Virus record (IMG/VR): IMGVR_UViG_2690316285_000010
Length of the DNA: 41,117 nt
Reading direction: 5' to 3' (one strand)
Origin: a virus
Lineage: Duplodnaviria; Heunggongvirae; Uroviricota; Caudoviricetes
The first letter of the stretch is position 1. Each line of letters begins with the position of its first letter. A program made the position numbers and the translations under genes. Positions 4,150 to 33,656 of this stretch are shown in pieces. Below the pieces are notes generated by a model that saw nothing but the letters and a program-made list of their open reading frames with translations, was not told the DNA's origin and did no database searches.

Positions 4150-5127
4150 TTACATTCCTCCCAAGGGATTAAACCTCACCGCATCCTGCAAGTAATCCGG
4201 CGCAAGATGGGAATAAATCATCGTTGTCTGAATCTTTGCGTGCCCCAGAATTTTCTGGAGCGTCAGAATATTGCCGCCGTTCATCATGAAATGACTGGCG
4301 AAGGTGTGGCGCAGCGCATGAACAGCCTGGCCGTCAGGAACATCAGGTGCGACCGTTTTGATGACATCGCGAACCAATGAATAATCCAGCGTCGGAAACA
4401 CCAGTTTCCCGCCCCGTTTTTTGATCTTTTCAAACAGGCTTTCAGAAATAGGAACGGTACGGTTTTTGCTGTTCTTCGTTTTTGAAAAAGTGATTCGACA
4501 ATGAAGAACACGGCGCTGCTCCAGTGCCGCTACCTCGCCCCATCGCGCCCCGGTCGACAGAAGGATTTCGACGGCCAGCCGTTCATCGGGATTTTCAGCC
4601 AGTGCATCCAGCAACTGAACACATTCAGACTTACTCAGATATCCCATTTCACGCTCGTTAACCTTCATTCCTTTAAGGCCTTGAACGGGGTTATCGTTAA
4701 GAAAATGGCCGGATGAGATGAGTGCGGTAAACATCGCGCTTAACGCCCCAATCTCTCGATTTATGGTGCTGGGCTGTATCCCCTGCTCTATCCTGGACAC
4801 ACGTAGCTCGGTGAGCATCGTTGTATTAAGTTTATGCACGCACGGGTCATCCATTGCCTCACTCAAGCGCAGCAATTTAAGGCGCGTGTTATGCCCTGAC
4901 TTCATTAGCTGGCCGTGGTATTTCCACCACAAGTCAATAAGCACTGACAGCGGACGGCGATCAATGGAGTTTCCTTTCCACTCATTGTTATGCTGTTGCG
5001 CCAGCACCCACCGCTCATATAAAACTGCATCCGATTTCGTTTTAAATTTTTTGCGAATGCGTTTGCCTTTACGCCCCTCAGGACGCATGTCAAGAAGATA
5101 CCCTCCCGGAATTGATTTTATGCTCAT
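4150..5127 (-). CDS. int: P2-type tyrosine integrase
   Basis: Strong similarity to P2/186 integrase as remembered, including the C-terminal HxxR...Y catalytic region (HALRHTFASHF ... MIYSHL). Start placed at MSIKS by alignment to P2 Int; the ORF-track start at 5277 is an upstream in-frame extension. Confidence 0.9.
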   Translation of the reverse strand: MSIKSIPGGYLLDMRPEGRKGKRIRKKFKTKSDAVLYERWVLAQQHNNEWKGNSIDRRPLSVLIDLWWKYHGQLMKSGHNTRLKLLRLSEAMDDPCVHKLNTTMLTELRVSRIEQGIQPSTINREIGALSAMFTALISSGHFLNDNPVQGLKGMKVNEREMGYLSKSECVQLLDALAENPDERLAVEILLSTGARWGEVAALEQRRVLHCRITFSKTKNSKNRTVPISESLFEKIKKRGGKLVFPTLDYSLVRDVIKTVAPDVPDGQAVHALRHTFASHFMMNGGNILTLQKILGHAKIQTTMIYSHLAPDYLQDAVRFNPLGGM

Positions 5128-5176
5128 TCGTGAAGCCCCAGCGTTACAAGACCACCATGCCCCCAGCGTTCCATGA

Positions 5177-5488
5177 TTAGCCGGGCTGTGTGCCAGTCTT
5201 GCGGGATTTTTGAGAAGACGATGTGTTTTCTGGCCCATCAGGGGAGAGAGAAGGACTGATCTGCCCAGCAGCCTCATTTGTTTCGTTACTCATCAACCAC
5301 GTAGTGTATTTTTTAAATTCCGGGTGCATTGTGATTTTCAGTAAAACCTCCGTTCCCACACCTCGAATACCAGTCTCGTATTGCTTAACCGTACCAACCG
5401 CAATACCTATTGAATCCGCGAACTTTGCCTGACTAAGCCCCTCAGATTCTCGAATTGCTTTTAGCTTCTTTGATATCTCTATTGACAT
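5177..5488 (-). CDS. P2 C-type immunity repressor (HTH)
   Basis: Small HTH protein (start at MSIEIS) upstream of and co-oriented with int, divergent from the early operon; resembles P2 C in size and layout. Confidence 0.7.
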   Translation of the reverse strand: MSIEISKKLKAIRESEGLSQAKFADSIGIAVGTVKQYETGIRGVGTEVLLKITMHPEFKKYTTWLMSNETNEAAGQISPSLSPDGPENTSSSQKSRKTGTQPG

Positions 5489-5511
5489 GGTGTGCACCTG
5501 AATACTATATT
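5482..5511 (+). promoter_or_regulatory. candidate sigma70 early promoter (Pe-like)
   Basis: TTGACA at 5482-5487, 18-bp spacer, TATATT at 5506-5511, facing the cox-like gene. Flanked by inverted GGTGTG...CCT...TA repeats at 5489-5504 and 5557-5575. Confidence 0.5.
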
Positions 5512-5583
5512 GGTTATCAGTTGAGTACCACTTGACGCTACAAAGAGCCACAAATAGCACCAGATTGAATAGGTTATCACACC

Positions 5584-5862
5584 ATGGCAAAAGTCCTTAA
5601 CACATACGAACAAGCGGATTTTGAGCGTTTGGCGGCGTTCTACCCATACCGTAATGAACATGGGCTACCGGTACTTGAAGAAAGCCTAGAGGATTATGCG
5701 AAACGCACAAATCAAAGCATTCTCGCTGTAAGAAGGCAGGCTGATAGATCGGTAATTCCCGTTACTCAAGAAGGAAGAAACACAAAACGCAAAGTAAATC
5801 TCTTCGCAATTTTCCTGAAAACCATCAGAAACGCAGAGAAATACGTGCAGATGACAAAATAA
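5584..5862 (+). CDS. putative Cox/Apl-like early regulator
   Basis: 92-aa first gene of the rightward early operon, divergent from the repressor; called by position only, sequence does not match P2 Cox as I remember it. Confidence 0.4.
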   Translation: MAKVLNTYEQADFERLAAFYPYRNEHGLPVLEESLEDYAKRTNQSILAVRRQADRSVIPVTQEGRNTKRKVNLFAIFLKTIRNAEKYVQMTK

Positions 5863-7922: not shown

Positions 7923-10745
7923 ATGACGGCAGAGTACATCAGGGACTGGCAACAACCGCGCCACGCAGTGGGGCGTGAAGGAACGGGGATCCCCGCTCCT
8001 GAATCCGCGCTTTCCTCCTGGCTGGATGCCCACCGGGCAGAGAACGAGCGCCGCCAGGAAATGGCTGATGCGGCGTTCTCCGCCACGCCACTGGGCAACC
8101 TGATTAATAAAAGCCTGGACGCACAGGAAAAACAGGACAAAACCATCACACTGGCAGGAGACGCCAGAAAACAGGCACGCGGCGCGGTGGATGAAGCCAT
8201 GGCCTCGCTGCGCCTGCTGCCGTCCTATCTGCGCGATCCGCTTATTCGCCACCTCTCCTTCCTGCGCAAAAAACAGGAAGCCGATCGCCGGAAAGGCAAA
8301 AAGAGCTGGCAGGCGGAACGCTATGCACGCGGAACCCTGCGCAAAATATTCGAACGTCTGGATCGCACTGACGGACACTGGCTGACACCGGGTTATCGCT
8401 CCCTTGCCGGACGTGAACGCCTGGACGATTTGCTTTACCTGCCGCAACTCAACAAACACCAGATACAGACGCTGGCCACCATGACGGCGGCGATGTTCAG
8501 CAGCACCTTCGAAAAACTCTGCGATGGTTTTGGCGCGACTGATGGCGAGCTGACCATGGATGTAACGCTGAAGGCGTATCAGATGCTGGCCCGCATGGCG
8601 TTACACTTACACGCCATGCCTCCGCATTATGACGCACTGACAACAGACAAAGACCGGAGGCACGAACCGGACACAGAACTGCTGCCGGGCGCAATCCTTC
8701 GCCTGACCTGTGCGGAATGGTGGAAACGCAAACTGTGGCTGTTACGTTGCGAGTGGAGAGAAGAACAACTTCGCGCCGCCTGTCTGGTTTCCAGAAAAAC
8801 ATCGCCCTATCTGAGCCAGGACGCGTTAAGCGAGTTTCGCGCACAGCGCGAGAAAACACGCGATTTCCTGAAAAGTTTCATGCTGGAAAATGAAGACGGG
8901 TTCACGATTGATCTCGAGACGGTGTATTACGCGGGAGTAAGTAACCCGGTTCACCGTAAGGCAGAAATGATGGCCACCATGAAGGGGCTGGAACTTCTGG
9001 CCGAAGCCCGTGGCGACAAAGCGGTGTTTCTGACTGTCACCTGCCCGTCAAAATACCACGCCACAACGGAGAACGGTCATCCGAATCCCAAATGGAACGG
9101 GGCCACAATGCGCGACTCCAGCGATTACCTGGTTAACACGTTTTTTGCGACGGTCCGCAAAAAACTGAACCGCGACGGCCTGCGCTGGTATGGCATCCGC
9201 ACGGCGGAGCCTCACCATGACGGCACCGTGCACTGGCATATGATGGTCTTTGCTCATCCGGAAGAAATCGACACCATTGTGTCCCACACCCGCGATATTG
9301 CCATTCAGGAAGATCGTCACGAGCTGGGCGATGACATAACTCCGCGCTTTAAGGCGGAGTATGTAGACGGCTCAAAAGGCACGCCAACCAGCTACATCGC
9401 CACCTACATCGGGAAAAACCTGGACAGCCGCGCCGTGGATGGCATCGACCCGAAAACGGGCAAGCCACGCGTTGACCACGAAACCGGAAAATCAATGGCC
9501 GAGAGCGTGGAACGCGCCATCGGCTGGGCGCGCCTTCACCGGGTCCGCCAGTTCCAGTTCTTTGGCATCCCCTCCCGCCAGGTATGGCGTGAACTGCGCC
9601 GCCTTGCCAGCCAGATGGCACGCAACCCGGAAGGCCCGCAACGGCTGAAGGATGACGCAATGGATGCGGTTCTTGCCGCCGCTGATGCCGGATGTTTTGC
9701 CACCTACATAGAGAAACAGGGCGGCGTACTTGTTCCACGCAAAGACTACCTGATTCGCACCGCCTACGACCTCGCCGATGAGCTGAACGATTACGGCGAA
9801 CAGAGCGTACAGATTTACGGGATCTGGTCACCACTCATCGGGGAATCCTCCCGTGTGTGCACGCATCCGGATAACTGGAAGCTGGTAAGACGCAAACCGG
9901 AAGCGGAAGACAGCGCCCGCGAAAATGGTTTTGACCTTCAGGGCGGCCCTGCCGCCCCTTGGACTCGTGGCAATAACTGTCCCCGTGTACAGGAAACGGA
10001 CAACAACGGGACAGAACAGCCGGAAGAACGGCCAGCACCGTGGCCGCAGCTCCCTGACGGCGTTGATGTGGATGAATGGATGCGCTCACTGAAACGGCAC
10101 GAACGCCGGGCGCTGATGCGTTCGCTTCGTGACAAACAGGCAAAAAACAGCAGTGATGAAATGCAGAGCTGGACACAGAGCCGCAAACAGCAGCGGCCTT
10201 TGCCTGATAACCACGAATTACTCGCTAAAGAATGGCGGGAGTCTGCTGAATCTCTCGGCCTGCATATCGGTGAACAACAGATGCAGCACCTGTTACGGGG
10301 CGGCAGTCTGTACGTTGACGGCAGCATCATTGCACCGCAGGGATTTGAAATTGTACGCAAACCGGATACCCGCCCGGACAGCCGAATCACGCAGCTCTGG
10401 CAGCGCCTGAGCCGTAATCATGGCGTAAGCAGCACGGAGATCCGCCATAACCCGGTCGCCAGCTATCTGACACAGCTGGGGGCATCAGACCCTGAAGCCG
10501 CCGCACGCCTGGCATCCACACTTCAGCAGGACCAGAACACCATGAAAACACCCGTTACCGTGCTTTCTGACATGCTGCGCGCCATCCGCGACGCAGAGCA
10601 CGCACAGAGAATCAGTGAAACCACTGAACGCGCCCGCCGCAAAGCAGACCTGCTGCGGGGTGGCCTGACCAGTGGAAACAAAAAACAGACAGAAACGGGA
10701 CTCACGAATCCCGTAAATGAGCAAAAAACGCGCAGCGATATATGA
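7923..10745 (+). CDS. A: P2 gpA-like rolling-circle replication initiator (940 aa)
   Basis: HUH-type motif (HWHMMVFAH) and catalytic Tyr region (TPTSYIATYIGKN) typical of P2 A; about 180 residues longer than P2 A as I remember it (761 aa). Confidence 0.8.
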   Translation: MTAEYIRDWQQPRHAVGREGTGIPAPESALSSWLDAHRAENERRQEMADAAFSATPLGNLINKSLDAQEKQDKTITLAGDARKQARGAVDEAMASLRLLPSYLRDPLIRHLSFLRKKQEADRRKGKKSWQAERYARGTLRKIFERLDRTDGHWLTPGYRSLAGRERLDDLLYLPQLNKHQIQTLATMTAAMFSSTFEKLCDGFGATDGELTMDVTLKAYQMLARMALHLHAMPPHYDALTTDKDRRHEPDTELLPGAILRLTCAEWWKRKLWLLRCEWREEQLRAACLVSRKTSPYLSQDALSEFRAQREKTRDFLKSFMLENEDGFTIDLETVYYAGVSNPVHRKAEMMATMKGLELLAEARGDKAVFLTVTCPSKYHATTENGHPNPKWNGATMRDSSDYLVNTFFATVRKKLNRDGLRWYGIRTAEPHHDGTVHWHMMVFAHPEEIDTIVSHTRDIAIQEDRHELGDDITPRFKAEYVDGSKGTPTSYIATYIGKNLDSRAVDGIDPKTGKPRVDHETGKSMAESVERAIGWARLHRVRQFQFFGIPSRQVWRELRRLASQMARNPEGPQRLKDDAMDAVLAAADAGCFATYIEKQGGVLVPRKDYLIRTAYDLADELNDYGEQSVQIYGIWSPLIGESSRVCTHPDNWKLVRRKPEAEDSARENGFDLQGGPAAPWTRGNNCPRVQETDNNGTEQPEERPAPWPQLPDGVDVDEWMRSLKRHERRALMRSLRDKQAKNSSDEMQSWTQSRKQQRPLPDNHELLAKEWRESAESLGLHIGEQQMQHLLRGGSLYVDGSIIAPQGFEIVRKPDTRPDSRITQLWQRLSRNHGVSSTEIRHNPVASYLTQLGASDPEAAARLASTLQQDQNTMKTPVTVLSDMLRAIRDAEHAQRISETTERARRKADLLRGGLTSGNKKQTETGLTNPVNEQKTRSDI

Positions 10746-10790
10746 AGCGCGCACAAAACAGGCAAAAACGGGATTTCAGAATCCCGTAAA
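10693..10790. promoter_or_regulatory. two 25-bp palindromic sites upstream of parM-like gene (candidate parC/operator)
   Basis: AAACGGGActcacgaaTCCCGTAAA at 10693-10717 (inside the 3' end of A) and AAACGGGAtttcagaaTCCCGTAAA at 10766-10790, 73 bp apart; second is 32 bp upstream of the parM-like start. Confidence 0.45.
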
Positions 10791-10821
10791 CGATTAATTA
10801 ATCAACATAAGGAAAAGCGAC

Positions 10822-11781
10822 ATGAAAATTTGTATCGACGACGGCTCCACCAACATCAAGCTGGCATGGACTGAGAACGGCGAACGCCGCAACGCCATCA
10901 GCCCGAACAGCTTCAAGTCGGAATGGTCTGCGCCGTTCGGTGGCATGCAGCCCGCGAACTACATGCTTGATGGCGTGCGCTATGGTTTTGATCCGGTCAG
11001 CGATCGCTTTGTCCAGACAACCGACACGCAATACCAGTACAGCGATGTAAATGTCATTGCCATTCATCACGCGCTGGTCAAATCAGGCATCACGCCACAG
11101 GAGGTGGATGTGGTTGTCACCCTGCCACTGAGCGAGTATTTCGACACAAACGCACAGCCGGACATGGCCAACATCAACCGCAAAAAAGCGAACGTTATGC
11201 GCCCGGTGGAGTACCAGAACGGCGAAGCATTCACTATCCGTAACGTGCGGGTTATGCCTGAATCCATTCCGGCTGGCTTTAAGGCACTGGCTGACATGAG
11301 TCCGTTTGAATCCCTGCTGATTGTGGATTTGGGCGGAACCACGCTGGATGTGGCAAAGGTTCAGGGGCAACTGGCAGGTATCAGCCAGGTGTTTTGCGAT
11401 CCACACGTAGGCGTTTCTCTGATGGCCGATGCCGTACTGTCGGTGATGGCCACTAACGGTATGCGCACCAGTCACCACATCGCCAATACCATTATCGAAC
11501 ATCGCCATGATGAAGCCTGGCTGCGCCAGCACATCCACAATGACGCGCATTACGCCAGCCTGATGGCGGTTATTCGTGAAAAGGAAGAAACACTGAAACA
11601 ACGCGTGATCCGCGCGCTGGCGGGTTTTTCGGGTTACGGGCGGGTGATGGTTGTCGGTGGAGGGGCGGAGATTGTGGCACCCGCTATCCGCGAAGCCTGC
11701 GGAGTTAATGCGACTTTCATCGCGGACGGGGTGCCACAGTTTGCTCTGGTTAATGGGCTGTACGCAATGGACAAGGAGTAA
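10822..11781 (+). CDS. ParM/StbA-like actin-family partition ATPase
   Basis: N-terminus MKICIDDGSTNIKLAW and internal IVDLGGTTLDV, VMVVGGGAE motifs closely follow plasmid R1 ParM (MLVFIDDGSTNIKLQW ...) as remembered; similarity runs full length. Confidence 0.8.
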   Translation: MKICIDDGSTNIKLAWTENGERRNAISPNSFKSEWSAPFGGMQPANYMLDGVRYGFDPVSDRFVQTTDTQYQYSDVNVIAIHHALVKSGITPQEVDVVVTLPLSEYFDTNAQPDMANINRKKANVMRPVEYQNGEAFTIRNVRVMPESIPAGFKALADMSPFESLLIVDLGGTTLDVAKVQGQLAGISQVFCDPHVGVSLMADAVLSVMATNGMRTSHHIANTIIEHRHDEAWLRQHIHNDAHYASLMAVIREKEETLKQRVIRALAGFSGYGRVMVVGGGAEIVAPAIREACGVNATFIADGVPQFALVNGLYAMDKE

Positions 11782-11785
11782 ACCA

Positions 11786-12097
11786 ATGACGACACCAACC
11801 AGACGGATAAGTTTCTATCTGAAGCCTGCGGCCGTCAAGAACGAAAGCGAAGCATGCGCCTGGCTGGGCAGCCTTACACCAGAAGCCCGCAAAAGCGGCC
11901 AACGCGTGGCTTTTCTGGCCGGGCTGGCACTTCTGAAAATGAATCCAGCAGAGGCTTACCGACTGGCTGCATGGGCTGACGATGAGGCGTTATCGGTGAC
12001 ACAAACCAGGACAGAACGCCCCGTGCCACAGCCAGTACCAACCGCACAGATAACCAGTCAGATAGCAGGGAATATCCGGGCATTATTTCCTGAATGA
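11786..12097 (+). CDS. ParR-like partition adaptor/repressor
   Basis: ATG 4 nt after the parM-like stop; N-terminal region (ISFYLKPAAV ... AFLAGLALL ... IRALFP) resembles R1 ParR. ORF-track form 11651-12097 would overlap parM and is rejected. Confidence 0.6.
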   Translation: MTTPTRRISFYLKPAAVKNESEACAWLGSLTPEARKSGQRVAFLAGLALLKMNPAEAYRLAAWADDEALSVTQTRTERPVPQPVPTAQITSQIAGNIRALFPE

Positions 12098-12157
12098 CGA
12101 ATTTGACGGCTTTTAATTTTATCGGGGTGCACTGTCGCCCCGCACGAGGAAAACACG

Positions 12158-12682
12158 ATGAAAAAATACGAATACATGCTAATGAAAGAAGCACTGCGGG
12201 CTGGTCTGGCTCCCTGTCCTGTATCCGTAGAAGCTGTTGTTGGGAACACGATTTTCCGAACGCTGCGAAATCGCGTATCCGTGAAGATGGTTCACCAACC
12301 ACCCAAATCTACCAGCATGATCTATCTGCCGCTGCCCGAGGCTATCAAACTTATGCGTTCGCTGAAATTTGCGATTTGGATGCAGACACAAATCAACAAA
12401 GCGGTGCAAAACACCTTCGTTAAGAGACTAATACCGGAGCTTGCTGCCAGATGTGCAAAATGTACCAGACCCGCACTTCAATTTGATCTGTCATTGATTC
12501 AACAAGCTACGGAGGCAGAACTGTACCGCCTGTCACCTATCCGTGATGCTCACACGGAAGCATCAGAAATGTTCCGGCTCATGTTTCAATTTAATTTTGC
12601 CGTTCGACGCACACGCGTTCAGGTCAATCGCATGATGCAGGAGCAGGAAGAGTTAACACAGTACAAAGGGGGCAGCCAGTGA
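12158..12682 (+). CDS. hypothetical protein (174 aa), cargo between A and cos
   Basis: ORF track; GAGGA RBS; no motif recognised. Confidence 0.5.
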   Translation: MKKYEYMLMKEALRAGLAPCPVSVEAVVGNTIFRTLRNRVSVKMVHQPPKSTSMIYLPLPEAIKLMRSLKFAIWMQTQINKAVQNTFVKRLIPELAARCAKCTRPALQFDLSLIQQATEAELYRLSPIRDAHTEASEMFRLMFQFNFAVRRTRVQVNRMMQEQEELTQYKGGSQ

Positions 12683-12918
12683 GTAATTCAGCACGACTAC
12701 AGCTTGGTTTTTCACCGCTATCAAAAACCATCGTATTGGCAAAAATGCGTGACTTAGGAGACGGAACAAAACGCCGCGTAGGAAATGATCGCGGTCGCGA
12801 TGTAACCAACGAGGCCGCTCAACTCGTTTGGCATCTAGTCATGGCAGAAGGCGGTGAAATTAATTGGGAGCTGGATGATGGTTCTCGTATGATTTTGAGG
12901 GCCGAGAAGAGTAAATAG
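12679..12918 (+). CDS. hypothetical protein (79 aa)
   Basis: ORF track; start overlaps the previous stop, suggesting translational coupling. Confidence 0.45.
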   Translation: MSNSARLQLGFSPLSKTIVLAKMRDLGDGTKRRVGNDRGRDVTNEAAQLVWHLVMAEGGEINWELDDGSRMILRAEKSK

Positions 12919-12932
12919 CTCAAGGGGGATTA

Positions 12933-13118
12933 ATGCTAAATGATGATGAAGAAGAGCTGCTTATGCAGGAATGGTCGCTCGGTGATTATGATAATGGTGA
13001 AAATGGGTGCCCGCATTGTGGCCGTTATCGTTTATGTATCTGCCAGAATGGAAAACACAGATGTGAAAAGTGCAATTGGTCTCCGGAACTTAATGACTAC
13101 GTGCCGATCGAGTGGTAG
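12933..13118 (+). CDS. hypothetical Cys-rich small protein (61 aa)
   Basis: ORF track; CPHCG...CxC...CEKC cysteines suggest a zinc-binding fold. Does not resemble Ogr. Confidence 0.4.
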   Translation: MLNDDEEELLMQEWSLGDYDNGENGCPHCGRYRLCICQNGKHRCEKCNWSPELNDYVPIEW

Positions 13119-13139: not shown

Positions 13140-13600
13140 TTTTAGTTGATTTTATAAATGCACAATAGTGCACAAATTTGCACAATTTTTTTGAACGACT
13201 TTTTGCCCTTCCGGCCCGCGTGGCGGCTGGATCCGTCAAGGATCCGTGCATGCACAAAAAAACGCGTTTTTTCTGCGCGCAGGTGACGGGGGAACAGCCC
13301 GCGTTTCAGGGGGTAAATAGCATTCCCTGAACGATGTCGCAGAGATACAACAGAATGGCTGTATTTCTCACGCTGAGCGTGAAAAAGACGTGAGGGCTTT
13401 TGATTTGATGGGGTGAAAGGTAAGGCCGTCAAAATCGCACTGAGACGGCGAGAATATGCAGTCAACGAGGTGGGATTGCGTAAGAGTCTGACTGTCGATG
13501 ATGGCAATCAGCAGGAAAGCGTCGTGAAATTATCTGACTGATACAGGAGCTGGAGAGTCGGGGCATAAATTTTTTATGCCCCGGCGAAGCAGCAGACAAG
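13140..13600. other. non-coding region at the expected position of cos and the packaging site
   Basis: 460 bp without ORFs just beyond the portal gene stop, where cos lies in P2. Contains phased TGCACAA repeats and a GCGTGGCGG stretch at about 13217-13226 that partly resembles the P2/186 cohesive end. Confidence 0.4.
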
Positions 13601-14656: not shown

Positions 14657-16470
14657 CAGAACTCCATAACCGTGAAACGCTCGTTTTCTCCTTCGCCGCC
14701 AATCGGTTCGTTAATGACAGCAAGCATGGTTGCCCACGCAAGGTCGCCGTGGCTGATCCCCCTCGCGCGGTCCGTTTCGTAAGTGATAAAACCGCCCGGT
14801 GTTTTCACCTTACGCACGGCGTTAAAGGCCGCAACCAGCTCGCGTTCGGCGCGATCGTATTCCCACCGCCCGGCACGCATTATTTGCAGCATTTTCAGTA
14901 CCAGCGACCGTTTTGATGACAGCGTGAAGGTGTAAGGGATGGCGGCGGGAAAAAACCGTTTCACTATCTGATAGACGGCATCCCCGTGCCCGCCCGTCGC
15001 ATCAATGCCGATGTGTTCCACGTTGTAGCGATACGTGAACTCTTCAATAACTCTGGCCTGCTCTTCAAATTCCAGCCCCTGAACGCGTCGCGTCTCCACC
15101 GTTCTGAAACGACCACCAGGAACAGCCGGAGGAACCACCACGGACACAGCGCCGCTGTCGCCGTTACCACTGCTGCCGTTTGCGTCATACCCAATCCATA
15201 CCGGACGATTCCCCATCGGGCGGGGGGCAAAGGGTTTCCAGTCTTTCCAGTCGTCGTATCCGTCAACACCGCAGCCAATCAGGATATTCAGGTTAAATGC
15301 CGATTCCCCTTCGCGGACAAACTCACACATATAGAGATTGCGGAACTCGTCTTCGGTGTTTTCATCACGAATTTCATCAATATCGGTGTGTTTCCAGCCG
15401 TGATTAACCACATCTTCCAGCGTGACAATTTGCCGCCACGTCCGGTCAGGGCAGATAAGCCCGTTATGCAGCGTTTTCCAGTCCACAGAAAAACGCTGGC
15501 GTTTATGCGCGGCCTTTTTCTCGTTCCAGCGGTCGCCGTTCCAGTAGGCGTATGCCTCGTGCGTTTCGGTGGATGGCGTGGAGAAGCAGGTGCGCCGCAG
15601 TCCGCTGAGGGTTGCCATAGCGCCAGCCACCTTGCGCAGTTCAGCAAAGCGACTGACCCAGAAAAATTCATCAAAATAAAAATTGCCCGTGTAAGATTGC
15701 GCCGTCGCAGCAGAAGTGCCGAGAAAATGCATCTCTGCGCCGTTGGAGAGGATGATTTTATCGCCCCCTTTCAGCTCCACATCGACTTCAGCCGCGGCCT
15801 TCTGAATAATGCTTTTAAACTGGAACGCCTGACGACGCGACGCAGACAAAAAAATCTGGTTACGCTGGTAAGGTTGTGCCACATCGTCACGCAGCGCCAT
15901 CAGCAGTGCTTCCTGTGCAAAATACCAGGTCGCCCCAATCTGTCGGGATTTCAGGATCATCCTGTTACGTATCCCGGCTTCNNNNNNNNNNNNNNNNNNN
16001 NCCGGCTTCCCTGCAAAGCGTCAGGGAGTCAAACCAGCCCCGCTGATGCCACTCCAGCCTGCTGATGATTTTTTCCCGCAGTGCGGCAATCTGTTCCGGC
16101 GTGAAATGATTTTTGAGTTTTTTCGCCCGGCCTTTCTTTCCTGTGGCCGTCGCATCCGGCTGGCCATCATGCAGTTTTTTAAGCTGCCGGGNNNNNNNNN
16201 NNNNNNNNNNNNNNNNNGCTGCCGGGTCAGCAGGTCTATTTCCTTAAAGTCACCACCTGTTTTATTCTGTTTTTCAGTAAGCTGGATGAGGCGCGCATCG
16301 ATGGACTGCGTGACACGCTGCACGGGTGGCGTTTCATCCCACTGGTCGCGTTTTTTCCACGCATAAATCGTGTTCGGGTTTATTCCCATCAGACGTGATA
16401 TTTCTGCGGGCGGATAACCCTGCCAGTAAAGTTGCCGCGCACGCTGGCGCACAAAAGCGTCCTGAATCAT
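14656..16470 (-). CDS. P: terminase large subunit (P2 gpP-like), interrupted by two N-runs
   Basis: ORF 14656-15960 matches the nuclease half of P2 P, ORF 16021-16470 the N-terminus. N-runs 15982-16001 and 16192-16217 are flanked by duplicated 9-bp sequences; removing the duplication restores frame (RQ / RQLKKLHDGQPDATAT). Confidence 0.8.
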
Positions 16471-33386: not shown

Positions 33387-33656
33387 TTACATTGTGTCTG
33401 GTTCTTCCGGCCACTCAATATCAGGTGCAGTTGATGTATCAACACGGTTCAGCAACACCCGATACTTCTTCCAGGCTTCCAGCAACGAGTTTTCTTCCTC
33501 CGTTGCGATCTCCAGATCTACAGCATCCTGAAGTGGCGCAATATGCTCACTGAATTCCTGGATGTAGAACTGTGTGGTGACGGTCTTCCAGCCATTCGGC
33601 TCCTGCTGTATCGAAGCATACCAGGCTATTTCAATATCGCTATGCTGCGGCAGCAT
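33387..33656 (-). CDS. short tail-fibre-assembly-like protein (C-terminal domain only)
   Basis: 89-aa ORF ending ...[28 protein letters not shown], the conserved C-terminus of Tfa proteins; N-terminal half unlike the other Tfa copies here. Confidence 0.5.

Follow-up and report, generated by a model that had tools for sequence, protein, structure and literature searches.

An R1-type ParM/ParR cassette in the conserved backbone of P88-like phages, with two upstream repeats as its candidate centromere

The 41,117-nucleotide (nt) stretch of viral DNA analysed here (IMG/VR virus record IMGVR_UViG_2690316285_000010, hereafter the window) carries an integrated P88-like prophage in which gene A, encoding the replication endonuclease, is followed by parM and parR, homologues of the genes that make up the type II partition system of plasmid R1. 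The two genes belong to the conserved backbone of the P88-like phages. We think the odds are slightly better than even that they form a genuine R1-type (ParM/ParR) segregation module, fixed in this backbone, that acts on extrachromosomal circles of the phage genome. Two repeat units lie just upstream of parM and are the candidate centromere. The cassette is laid out as follows (positions are those of the window):

7923..10745, plus strand: gene A, rolling-circle replication endonuclease of 940 amino acids (aa); Pfam Phage_GPA, 6.6e-131
10679..10720: repeat unit 1 (candidate centromere/operator), an A-rich tract plus an inverted repeat, from a repeat search
10695-10714: inverted repeat 1, ACGGGACT-CACG-AATCCCGT, with one arm mismatch
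10752..10793: repeat unit 2, an A-rich tract plus an inverted repeat, in the gap between gene A and parM, from a repeat search
10768-10787: inverted repeat 2, ACGGGATT-TCAG-AATCCCGT, perfect
10809..10813, plus strand: Shine-Dalgarno-like AAGGA, 8 nt before the parM ATG, from reading the sequence
10822..11781, plus strand: parM (stbA), actin-fold segregation ATPase of 319 aa; Pfam, PDB and PHROG matches
11786..12097, plus strand: parR (stbB), ribbon-helix-helix-type adaptor of 103 aa; Pfam, PHROG and family-profile matches

Gene A ends at 10745, leaving 76 base pairs (bp) before parM, and its final 17 codons read through repeat unit 1. The parM stop codon occupies positions 11779-11781 and the parR ATG begins at 11786, so the two genes are separated by 4 nt.

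Identity of the two proteins

The predicted 319-aa protein matches Pfam StbA_N over residues 1-157 (2.7e-82) and the ParM C-terminal domain over residues 159-316 (1.3e-68). It aligns at full length (residues 2-316) with the crystal structures of R1 ParM (PDB, e.g. 1mwk; 8.5e-93), matches PHROG 691 ("partition protein"), and is 47% identical to R100 ParM, again over the full length. In the pairwise alignment with the R100 protein, the motifs DDGSTNIK, MPESIPAG, DLGGTTLD, and GGGAE are identical or conservatively replaced; we take these to be the phosphate-1, catalytic-region, phosphate-2, and adenosine motifs, respectively.

The 103-aa protein matches Pfam Plasmid_stab_B (2e-23) and PHROG 2515. 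A phmmer search of PDB with ParR matched no solved structure; a profile made from ParR and its relatives matches ParR/StbB of pB171 (PDB 2JD3) at 3.4e-13. The N-terminal strand, RRISFYLKP, corresponds to RRTIAFKLNP in R100 ParR, and this strand and the helix that follows it are common to the ParR proteins of R100, pEL60, and D6. At the other end of the protein, K/G-N-I-x-x-L-F-P-E aligns with the C-terminal KKNAMKLIN of R100 ParR and with KNVQHLFP of pEL60. In the R1 system, the C-terminal tail of ParR is the part that docks onto ParM. Because the domain, structure, and profile matches and the ParR alignment all agree, the assignment of these proteins to R1-type ParM/StbA and to ParR/StbB is sound, as judged by sequence comparison. 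An earlier note on this DNA, made from its letters alone, had read 10822-11781 as an actin-like ParM/StbA and the gene 4 nt after it as ParR-like, in the plasmid parMR order; the profile searches place the 319-aa protein inside the ParM/StbA family, the second protein is likewise borne out by its Pfam and pB171 matches, and the coordinates agree with the spacing and order.

A conserved part of the P88-like backbone

Positions 10600-12150, which take in the last part of gene A together with parM and parR, were used as a 1551-nt query. Escherichia phage P88 (NC_026014; genus Xuanwuvirus, Peduoviridae) matches 96% of it at 98.0% identity, and 13 further phage records, one of them that of Citrobacter phage phiSM, match at 95-99%. 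P88 is annotated with a replication endonuclease (gp16), a "plasmid segregation protein ParM" (gp17), and a "partition protein" (gp18), and its ParM is 99.7% identical to that of the window, the differences being allelic only. In P88, phiSM, P884B11, 520873, and PhiR44_2, the genes A, parM, and parR occur in the same order together with both palindromes, at 95-98% nucleotide identity. The cassette is found in 1308 of 5426 complete E. coli genomes (24%), O157:H7 and ST131 strains among them, with RefSeq annotation as in P88. This type of gene A is present, at a coverage of at least 80%, in 1320 of the E. coli genomes and the cassette in 1246; ~94% of the genomes with such a gene A carry the cassette too.

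Similarity to the relatives ends at the parR stop, give or take a few bases (query positions 1494-1499), and the genes beyond that point differ from record to record (P88, strain EA2, strain 1162T7); thus the variable cargo locus starts after parR. The order in the window is that of P88: integrase, repressor, early operon, A, parM, parR, cargo, portal, and terminase. P2 carries orf91, tin, and old after gene A in place of the module. Within the phage database, R1-type ParM occurs only in Xuanwuvirus and in D6. The cassette is therefore conserved backbone of the P88-like phages rather than cargo. The earlier note was right that the module is absent from canonical P2; its suggestion of cargo in the A-to-cos locus does not survive a survey of that locus, at which parMR is constant in P88-like phages.

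Nor is the arrangement new, although that note knew of no description of it. It is an annotated hallmark of P88-like phages in GenBank and RefSeq, its proteins have PHROG families of their own, and a possible episomal meaning is already in print: P88 was picked up in a screen for phage-plasmids, and both episomal and integrated states were suggested for it (Pfeifer et al. 2021, PMC7969092). In whole-word literature searches, no functional study of the module was found and no paper linking ParM with P2-like phages; partition and plasmids are absent from the text of a 2026 survey of P2-like viruses.

The module also appears, at 98% protein identity, in an assembly assigned to a Gram-positive genus (NZ_JBQPOM010000071.1, Vagococcus sp. 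WN89Y), which is likely to reflect contamination or mislabelling.

Selection and intactness

All 92 related loci have an intact ParM, of 319 or 317 aa. In 90 of them, a 4-nt gap separates the parM stop from parR, and in 88 ParR is full-length. Among 74 distinct sequences, parM diversity at codon positions 1, 2, and 3 is 0.0085, 0.0046, and 0.067, so that the third position is about ten times as diverse as the first and second; parM is thus under strong purifying selection. The AAGGA columns upstream of parM (10809-10813) are invariant in the same 74 sequences. Within ParR, the first 16 residues are nearly invariant (diversity 0.05), residues 65-90 form a hypervariable linker (0.53), and the C-terminal N-I-x-x-x-F-P positions are invariant across loci. 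Such a pattern would be expected if a free linker connected a head that binds DNA with a tail that binds ParM.

These data bear on the idea that the cassette is a decaying relic of some past recombination between plasmid and phage, without present function. The centromere-like region is indeed minimal when set against R1 parC. However, the intact ParM in every locus, the strong excess of synonymous over non-synonymous variation, and the conserved interaction motifs of ParR speak against decay, and the selection pattern effectively refutes this explanation, to which we give hardly any credence.

At least two deep allele classes of parR exist (VKNE... and VKSE...), which have the first ~18 and the last ~8 residues in common. 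In the DNA of many E. coli genomes, resemblance to the window is lost at ~11840, within parR, and this break suggests intragenic recombination.

The upstream repeats

The 42-nt units at 10679-10720 and 10752-10793 form a direct repeat, 81% identical and 73 bp apart from start to start, in which each copy holds an inverted repeat and an A-rich tract. The consensus of the inverted repeat is ACGGGAyT-N4-AATCCCGT, with 8-bp arms and a 4-nt spacer, 20 bp in all. The earlier note had described two 25-bp palindromes here. Its 73-bp spacing and its placing of the first copy inside the 3' end of gene A stand; the length does not, because the AAA runs that flank the arms are direct, not inverted. With up to 3 mismatches allowed, the motif occurs at only these two sites in the window, where 0.16 would be expected, and just 1 of 100 shuffled sequences reached two.

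Conservation of the repeats was scored in the 90 related loci that have sufficient upstream sequence. Both repeats are present in 90 of 90, at -125 and -52 from the parM ATG, and their 73-bp spacing is kept in 87. Of all columns, those of the 4-nt spacers vary most; the arms vary too at their outer positions, while almost no change is seen in the GGGA and ATCC cores. One search for related loci returned copies of 98-100% identity only; the most useful diverged copy is that of a Hafnia metagenome-assembled genome (ParM 94% and ParR 74% identical). In Hafnia, gene A stops within the spacer of site 1, and both sites are nonetheless kept as GGGATT-N4-AATCCC, 73 bp apart; thus site 1 is conserved as a DNA element and not through coding constraint. 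A scan of 2.9 million viral contigs for the pair found 93 loci, all with a parM start at most 120 nt downstream. These loci are all homologous, and so the scan speaks for exclusivity rather than for independent recurrence.

The geometry of the repeats would suit a ribbon-helix-helix protein bound as a dimer of dimers, with half-site centres 10 bp apart and the two sites separated by seven helical turns. Conserved and exclusive to the cassette, yet only two in number, palindromic, and with no promoter detected, the repeats are best regarded as a candidate centromere.

It is unlikely, in our judgement, that the palindromes serve instead as RNA or transcriptional elements, with ParR binding elsewhere or not at all. 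They might be intrinsic terminators on the minus strand that keep antisense or late-operon read-through out of gene A, or mRNA hairpins on the plus strand. Read on the minus strand, each consists of an 8-bp stem and a 4-nt loop followed by a T-rich run; both score as terminator-like, with folding energies of -9 to -10.7 kcal/mol, and on that strand no terminator-like site was found from the portal gene's end to the cargo genes. However, the window has no minus-strand genes between parR and cos, and a terminator lying 3 kb beyond the portal gene's end, on the upstream side of parMR and not the downstream one, would be oddly located. In the Hafnia copy, both sites lose the outer C-G pair without compensation, and the strict 73-bp phasing of the two copies fits protein binding better. 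The mismatches, considered as a guide to the strand on which a hairpin might form, proved uninformative: the C/A mismatch that site 1 has on the plus strand is a G-U pair when the minus strand is read, whereas the common variants of site 2 (GCGGGATT...AATCCTGT) are G-U on the plus strand and C/A on the minus strand, so that the two sites prefer opposite strands and no consistent RNA-strand signal emerges. A role in RNA and a role as centromere are not mutually exclusive.

Expression

A consensus scan, of a kind that can miss a weak or unusual promoter, found no σ70-like promoter in 10400-12150, and only poor hexamers are visible by eye. The annotation of the P2 record has Pe driving the early operon and the C repressor repressing it in lysogens. 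Read most simply, parMR would be the last genes of the early operon from which gene A is expressed (cox...A-parM-parR). In that case, ParM and ParR would be made after infection or induction and not in the quiescent, repressed lysogen.

Proposed function

Under the segregation reading favoured here, parM and parR would be the last genes transcribed from the early replication operon. ParR dimers would bind both repeat units just upstream of parM, and the protein's conserved C-terminal tail would link the circular phage genome to filaments of ParM. These filaments would then move or separate phage circles while the genome is transiently extrachromosomal, be it prior to integration, following excision, or in the course of rolling-circle replication. 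The outcome would be either less loss of the phage at cell division or the organisation of replication and packaging. A more specific version of this proposal, which we hold tentatively and at somewhat less than even chances, is that an R1-type, actin-like spindle with a minimal, two-palindrome centromere positions or segregates a rolling-circle genome while it is transiently extrachromosomal, thereby raising the efficiency of lysogenisation or replication or allowing a facultative episomal carrier state.

Several observations weigh against a segregation function. P2, which has no such module, still infects, integrates, and grows lytically. The cis region, with its two palindromes only, is unlike the R1-type parC regions of R100, pEL60, and D6. 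Mean diversity in the repeat arms is 0.05-0.07, which is not below the synonymous-site value of 0.067, and it is only the cores that approach invariance. The ParR allele classes and the alleles of the sites do not co-vary, both classes having the N-terminal strand and the sites in common, and hence there is no signal of co-evolution. Finally, expression in the lysogen is conceivable from a promoter of the kind that the consensus scan would miss.

Should the proposal be correct, the cassette would be the first working ParMRC of a tailed coliphage that integrates, and its centromere would have an architecture that is new, and very compact, for the R1 ParR family; an R1-family ParR would be able to work with two palindromic sites as opposed to a ten-iteron array. 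It would also provide a tractable E. coli case of an integrated virus that uses a plasmid-type cytoskeleton only while extrachromosomal, as a parallel to the SXT/R391 elements and to Corynebacterium CGP3. The remaining interest is moderate and lies in the role of so widespread a module and in its unusually compact candidate centromere.

Possible plasmid lysogeny

The window copy is integrated, its integrase and repressor genes following host ABC-transporter genes:

4150-5277, minus strand: integrase
5177-5590, minus strand: helix-turn-helix repressor

A reading with rather poor prospects, slightly less likely again than an RNA role for the palindromes, is that the module makes P88-like phages facultative phage-plasmids, which, instead of integrating, can be stably maintained as low-copy plasmids. 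Besides the two states suggested for P88 by the screen cited above, some records point this way. The PLSDB record pZ1323PEC0009-2 is a complete, circular P88-like genome of 34,461 bp; the P2-like Burkholderia phage KS14 lysogenises as a plasmid, using ParA; and the ParM of the P1-like plasmid prophage D6 is 48% identical to that of the window. However, the cassette copies in the complete E. coli genomes number 1456, and 1454 of these are chromosomal, the other 2 being on records called plasmids, which argues against routine plasmid lysogeny. Integrase is present in every P88-like record examined, including pZ1323PEC0009-2, the one phage-sized circle in PLSDB, and a lone circle of this size could equally come from spontaneous induction. 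Extrachromosomal maintenance in lysogens, which defines a phage-plasmid, is not what the window copy displays. In addition, the A protein indicates rolling-circle replication of the lytic type and not copy-controlled theta replication, and no plasmid-type, copy-controlled initiator was found in the stretch beside the module, to which the look for Rep genes was confined and where the only initiator is the Phage_GPA endonuclease A. Stable plasmid lysogeny thus seems to be rare among P88-like phages.

The record NZ_CP148288.1, a circular "plasmid" of 34.5 kb, is a whole P88-like phage genome that also has a Hok/Gef family toxin gene and a Com-regulated DNA methyltransferase gene beside ogr. It combines homologues of both R1 stability loci, parMR and a hok-like gene.

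Possible accessory functions

We regard as improbable, more so than plasmid lysogeny, an accessory function expressed in the lysogen, such as exclusion of or incompatibility with plasmids or phages that have the same centromere, or an effect on the host chromosome. The module does adjoin the cargo hotspot of the P2 family, where P2 has tin and old, and its phiSM homologue is listed in one paper as a "fitness" cargo gene. Set against this, the module is invariant backbone while the adjacent genes vary among relatives, and no promoter of its own was detected. A tblastn search of plasmids with ParR returned only P88-like elements, and the palindrome pair occurs nowhere else in the 2.9 million viral contigs, so that no target for incompatibility is evident. 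A defence system was considered as well and rejected, since no PADLOC defence model matches ParM, ParR, or the neighbouring genes.

Comparison with known systems

The parMRC (stbAB) loci of R1 and R100 resemble the cassette in their order of cis site, parM, and parR, in the N-terminal strand and helix of ParR, and in its K-N-x-x-x-L tail. The cis sites differ: R100 parC is an A/C-rich region of ~150 bp with many short direct repeats around TTGACA, whereas the window has two 20-bp inverted repeats and no recognisable promoter. The window ParR is 14 aa shorter than R100 ParR and ~22% identical to it. R1 and R100 are low-copy plasmids, whereas the window element is an integrating phage. The upstream regions of pEL60 and D6 are also unlike that of the window, being AT-rich, ~240-270 bp long, and furnished with several direct repeats of 10-16 bp. 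D6 does share the arrangement, with a ParR homologue encoded after ParM, and similarity to "phage P88 StbA" is mentioned in its record; however, it lives as a plasmid, and its upstream region of ~270 bp is rich in iterons. KS14 differs from the window element in its plasmid lifestyle, its ParA (type I) system, and its RepB-type plasmid initiator.

The closest functional analogy is the srpMRC locus of the SXT/R391 integrative and conjugative elements. It is a type II partition locus in a normally integrated element; it is expressed only on activation and has been shown experimentally to stabilise the excised form, which replicates by the rolling-circle mode (Carraro et al. 2015, PMC4489591). 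The relationship of SrpM and SrpR to R1 ParM and ParR is a distant one, however, and the element is conjugative; for the window, a comparable function would be a matter of inference. A second parallel, likewise studied by experiment, is the AlpA/AlpC/alpS system of the Corynebacterium glutamicum prophage CGP3, which is induced early, has an adaptor that binds upstream of its own operon, and is needed for efficient replication of the phage DNA (Donovan et al. 2015, PMC4446434). Like the window element, CGP3 is an integrated prophage with an actin-like protein and a DNA-binding adaptor. AlpC belongs to a different actin-like lineage, however, the host is Gram-positive, and the phage is not P2-like.

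Gene A and other features of the window

Gene A is 30% identical to P2 A over 747 aa and is annotated as a replication endonuclease in P88 and in E. coli genomes. At 940 aa, compared with 761 aa for P2 A, it has a long, poorly conserved C-terminal extension; its 3' part is under relaxed constraint, with diversities of 0.044, 0.048, and 0.098 at the three codon positions. The likely replication origin lies within it:

~9943..9982, plus strand: homologue of the P2 ori nick-site region, from alignment with P2

The P2 record annotates the nick site within gene A, and the P2 nick-site region GCGGCATCGCCGCGCCTCGGAGTCCTGTCAATAACTGTGG aligns with GGCGGCCCTGCCGCCCCTTGGACTCGTGGCAATAACTGTCC of the window at the matching position of the protein alignment. 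A replication origin at the palindromes was therefore rejected, given that the nick-site homologue is 700 bp upstream of them.

The genes after parR (12158-13118) encode a 174-aa protein with no family match, a DUF7446 protein, and a zinc-ribbon protein of 61 aa, and they make up the true variable cargo locus, which lies between parR and the cos/portal region. A palindromic hairpin at 13168-13183, GTGCACAAATTTGCAC, followed by a T run, is situated at the end of the plus-strand cargo genes and is likely to be a terminator just before the cos/portal region. In an Rfam scan of the window, there was no hok/sok and nothing at the cassette; the only family detected was IS009 (RF02111), at 33430-33633 on the minus strand, whose 129 bits exceed the gathering score. 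In the region of the terminase large-subunit gene, 20 consecutive N (bases masked or unresolved) at 15982-16001 break the open reading frame calls.

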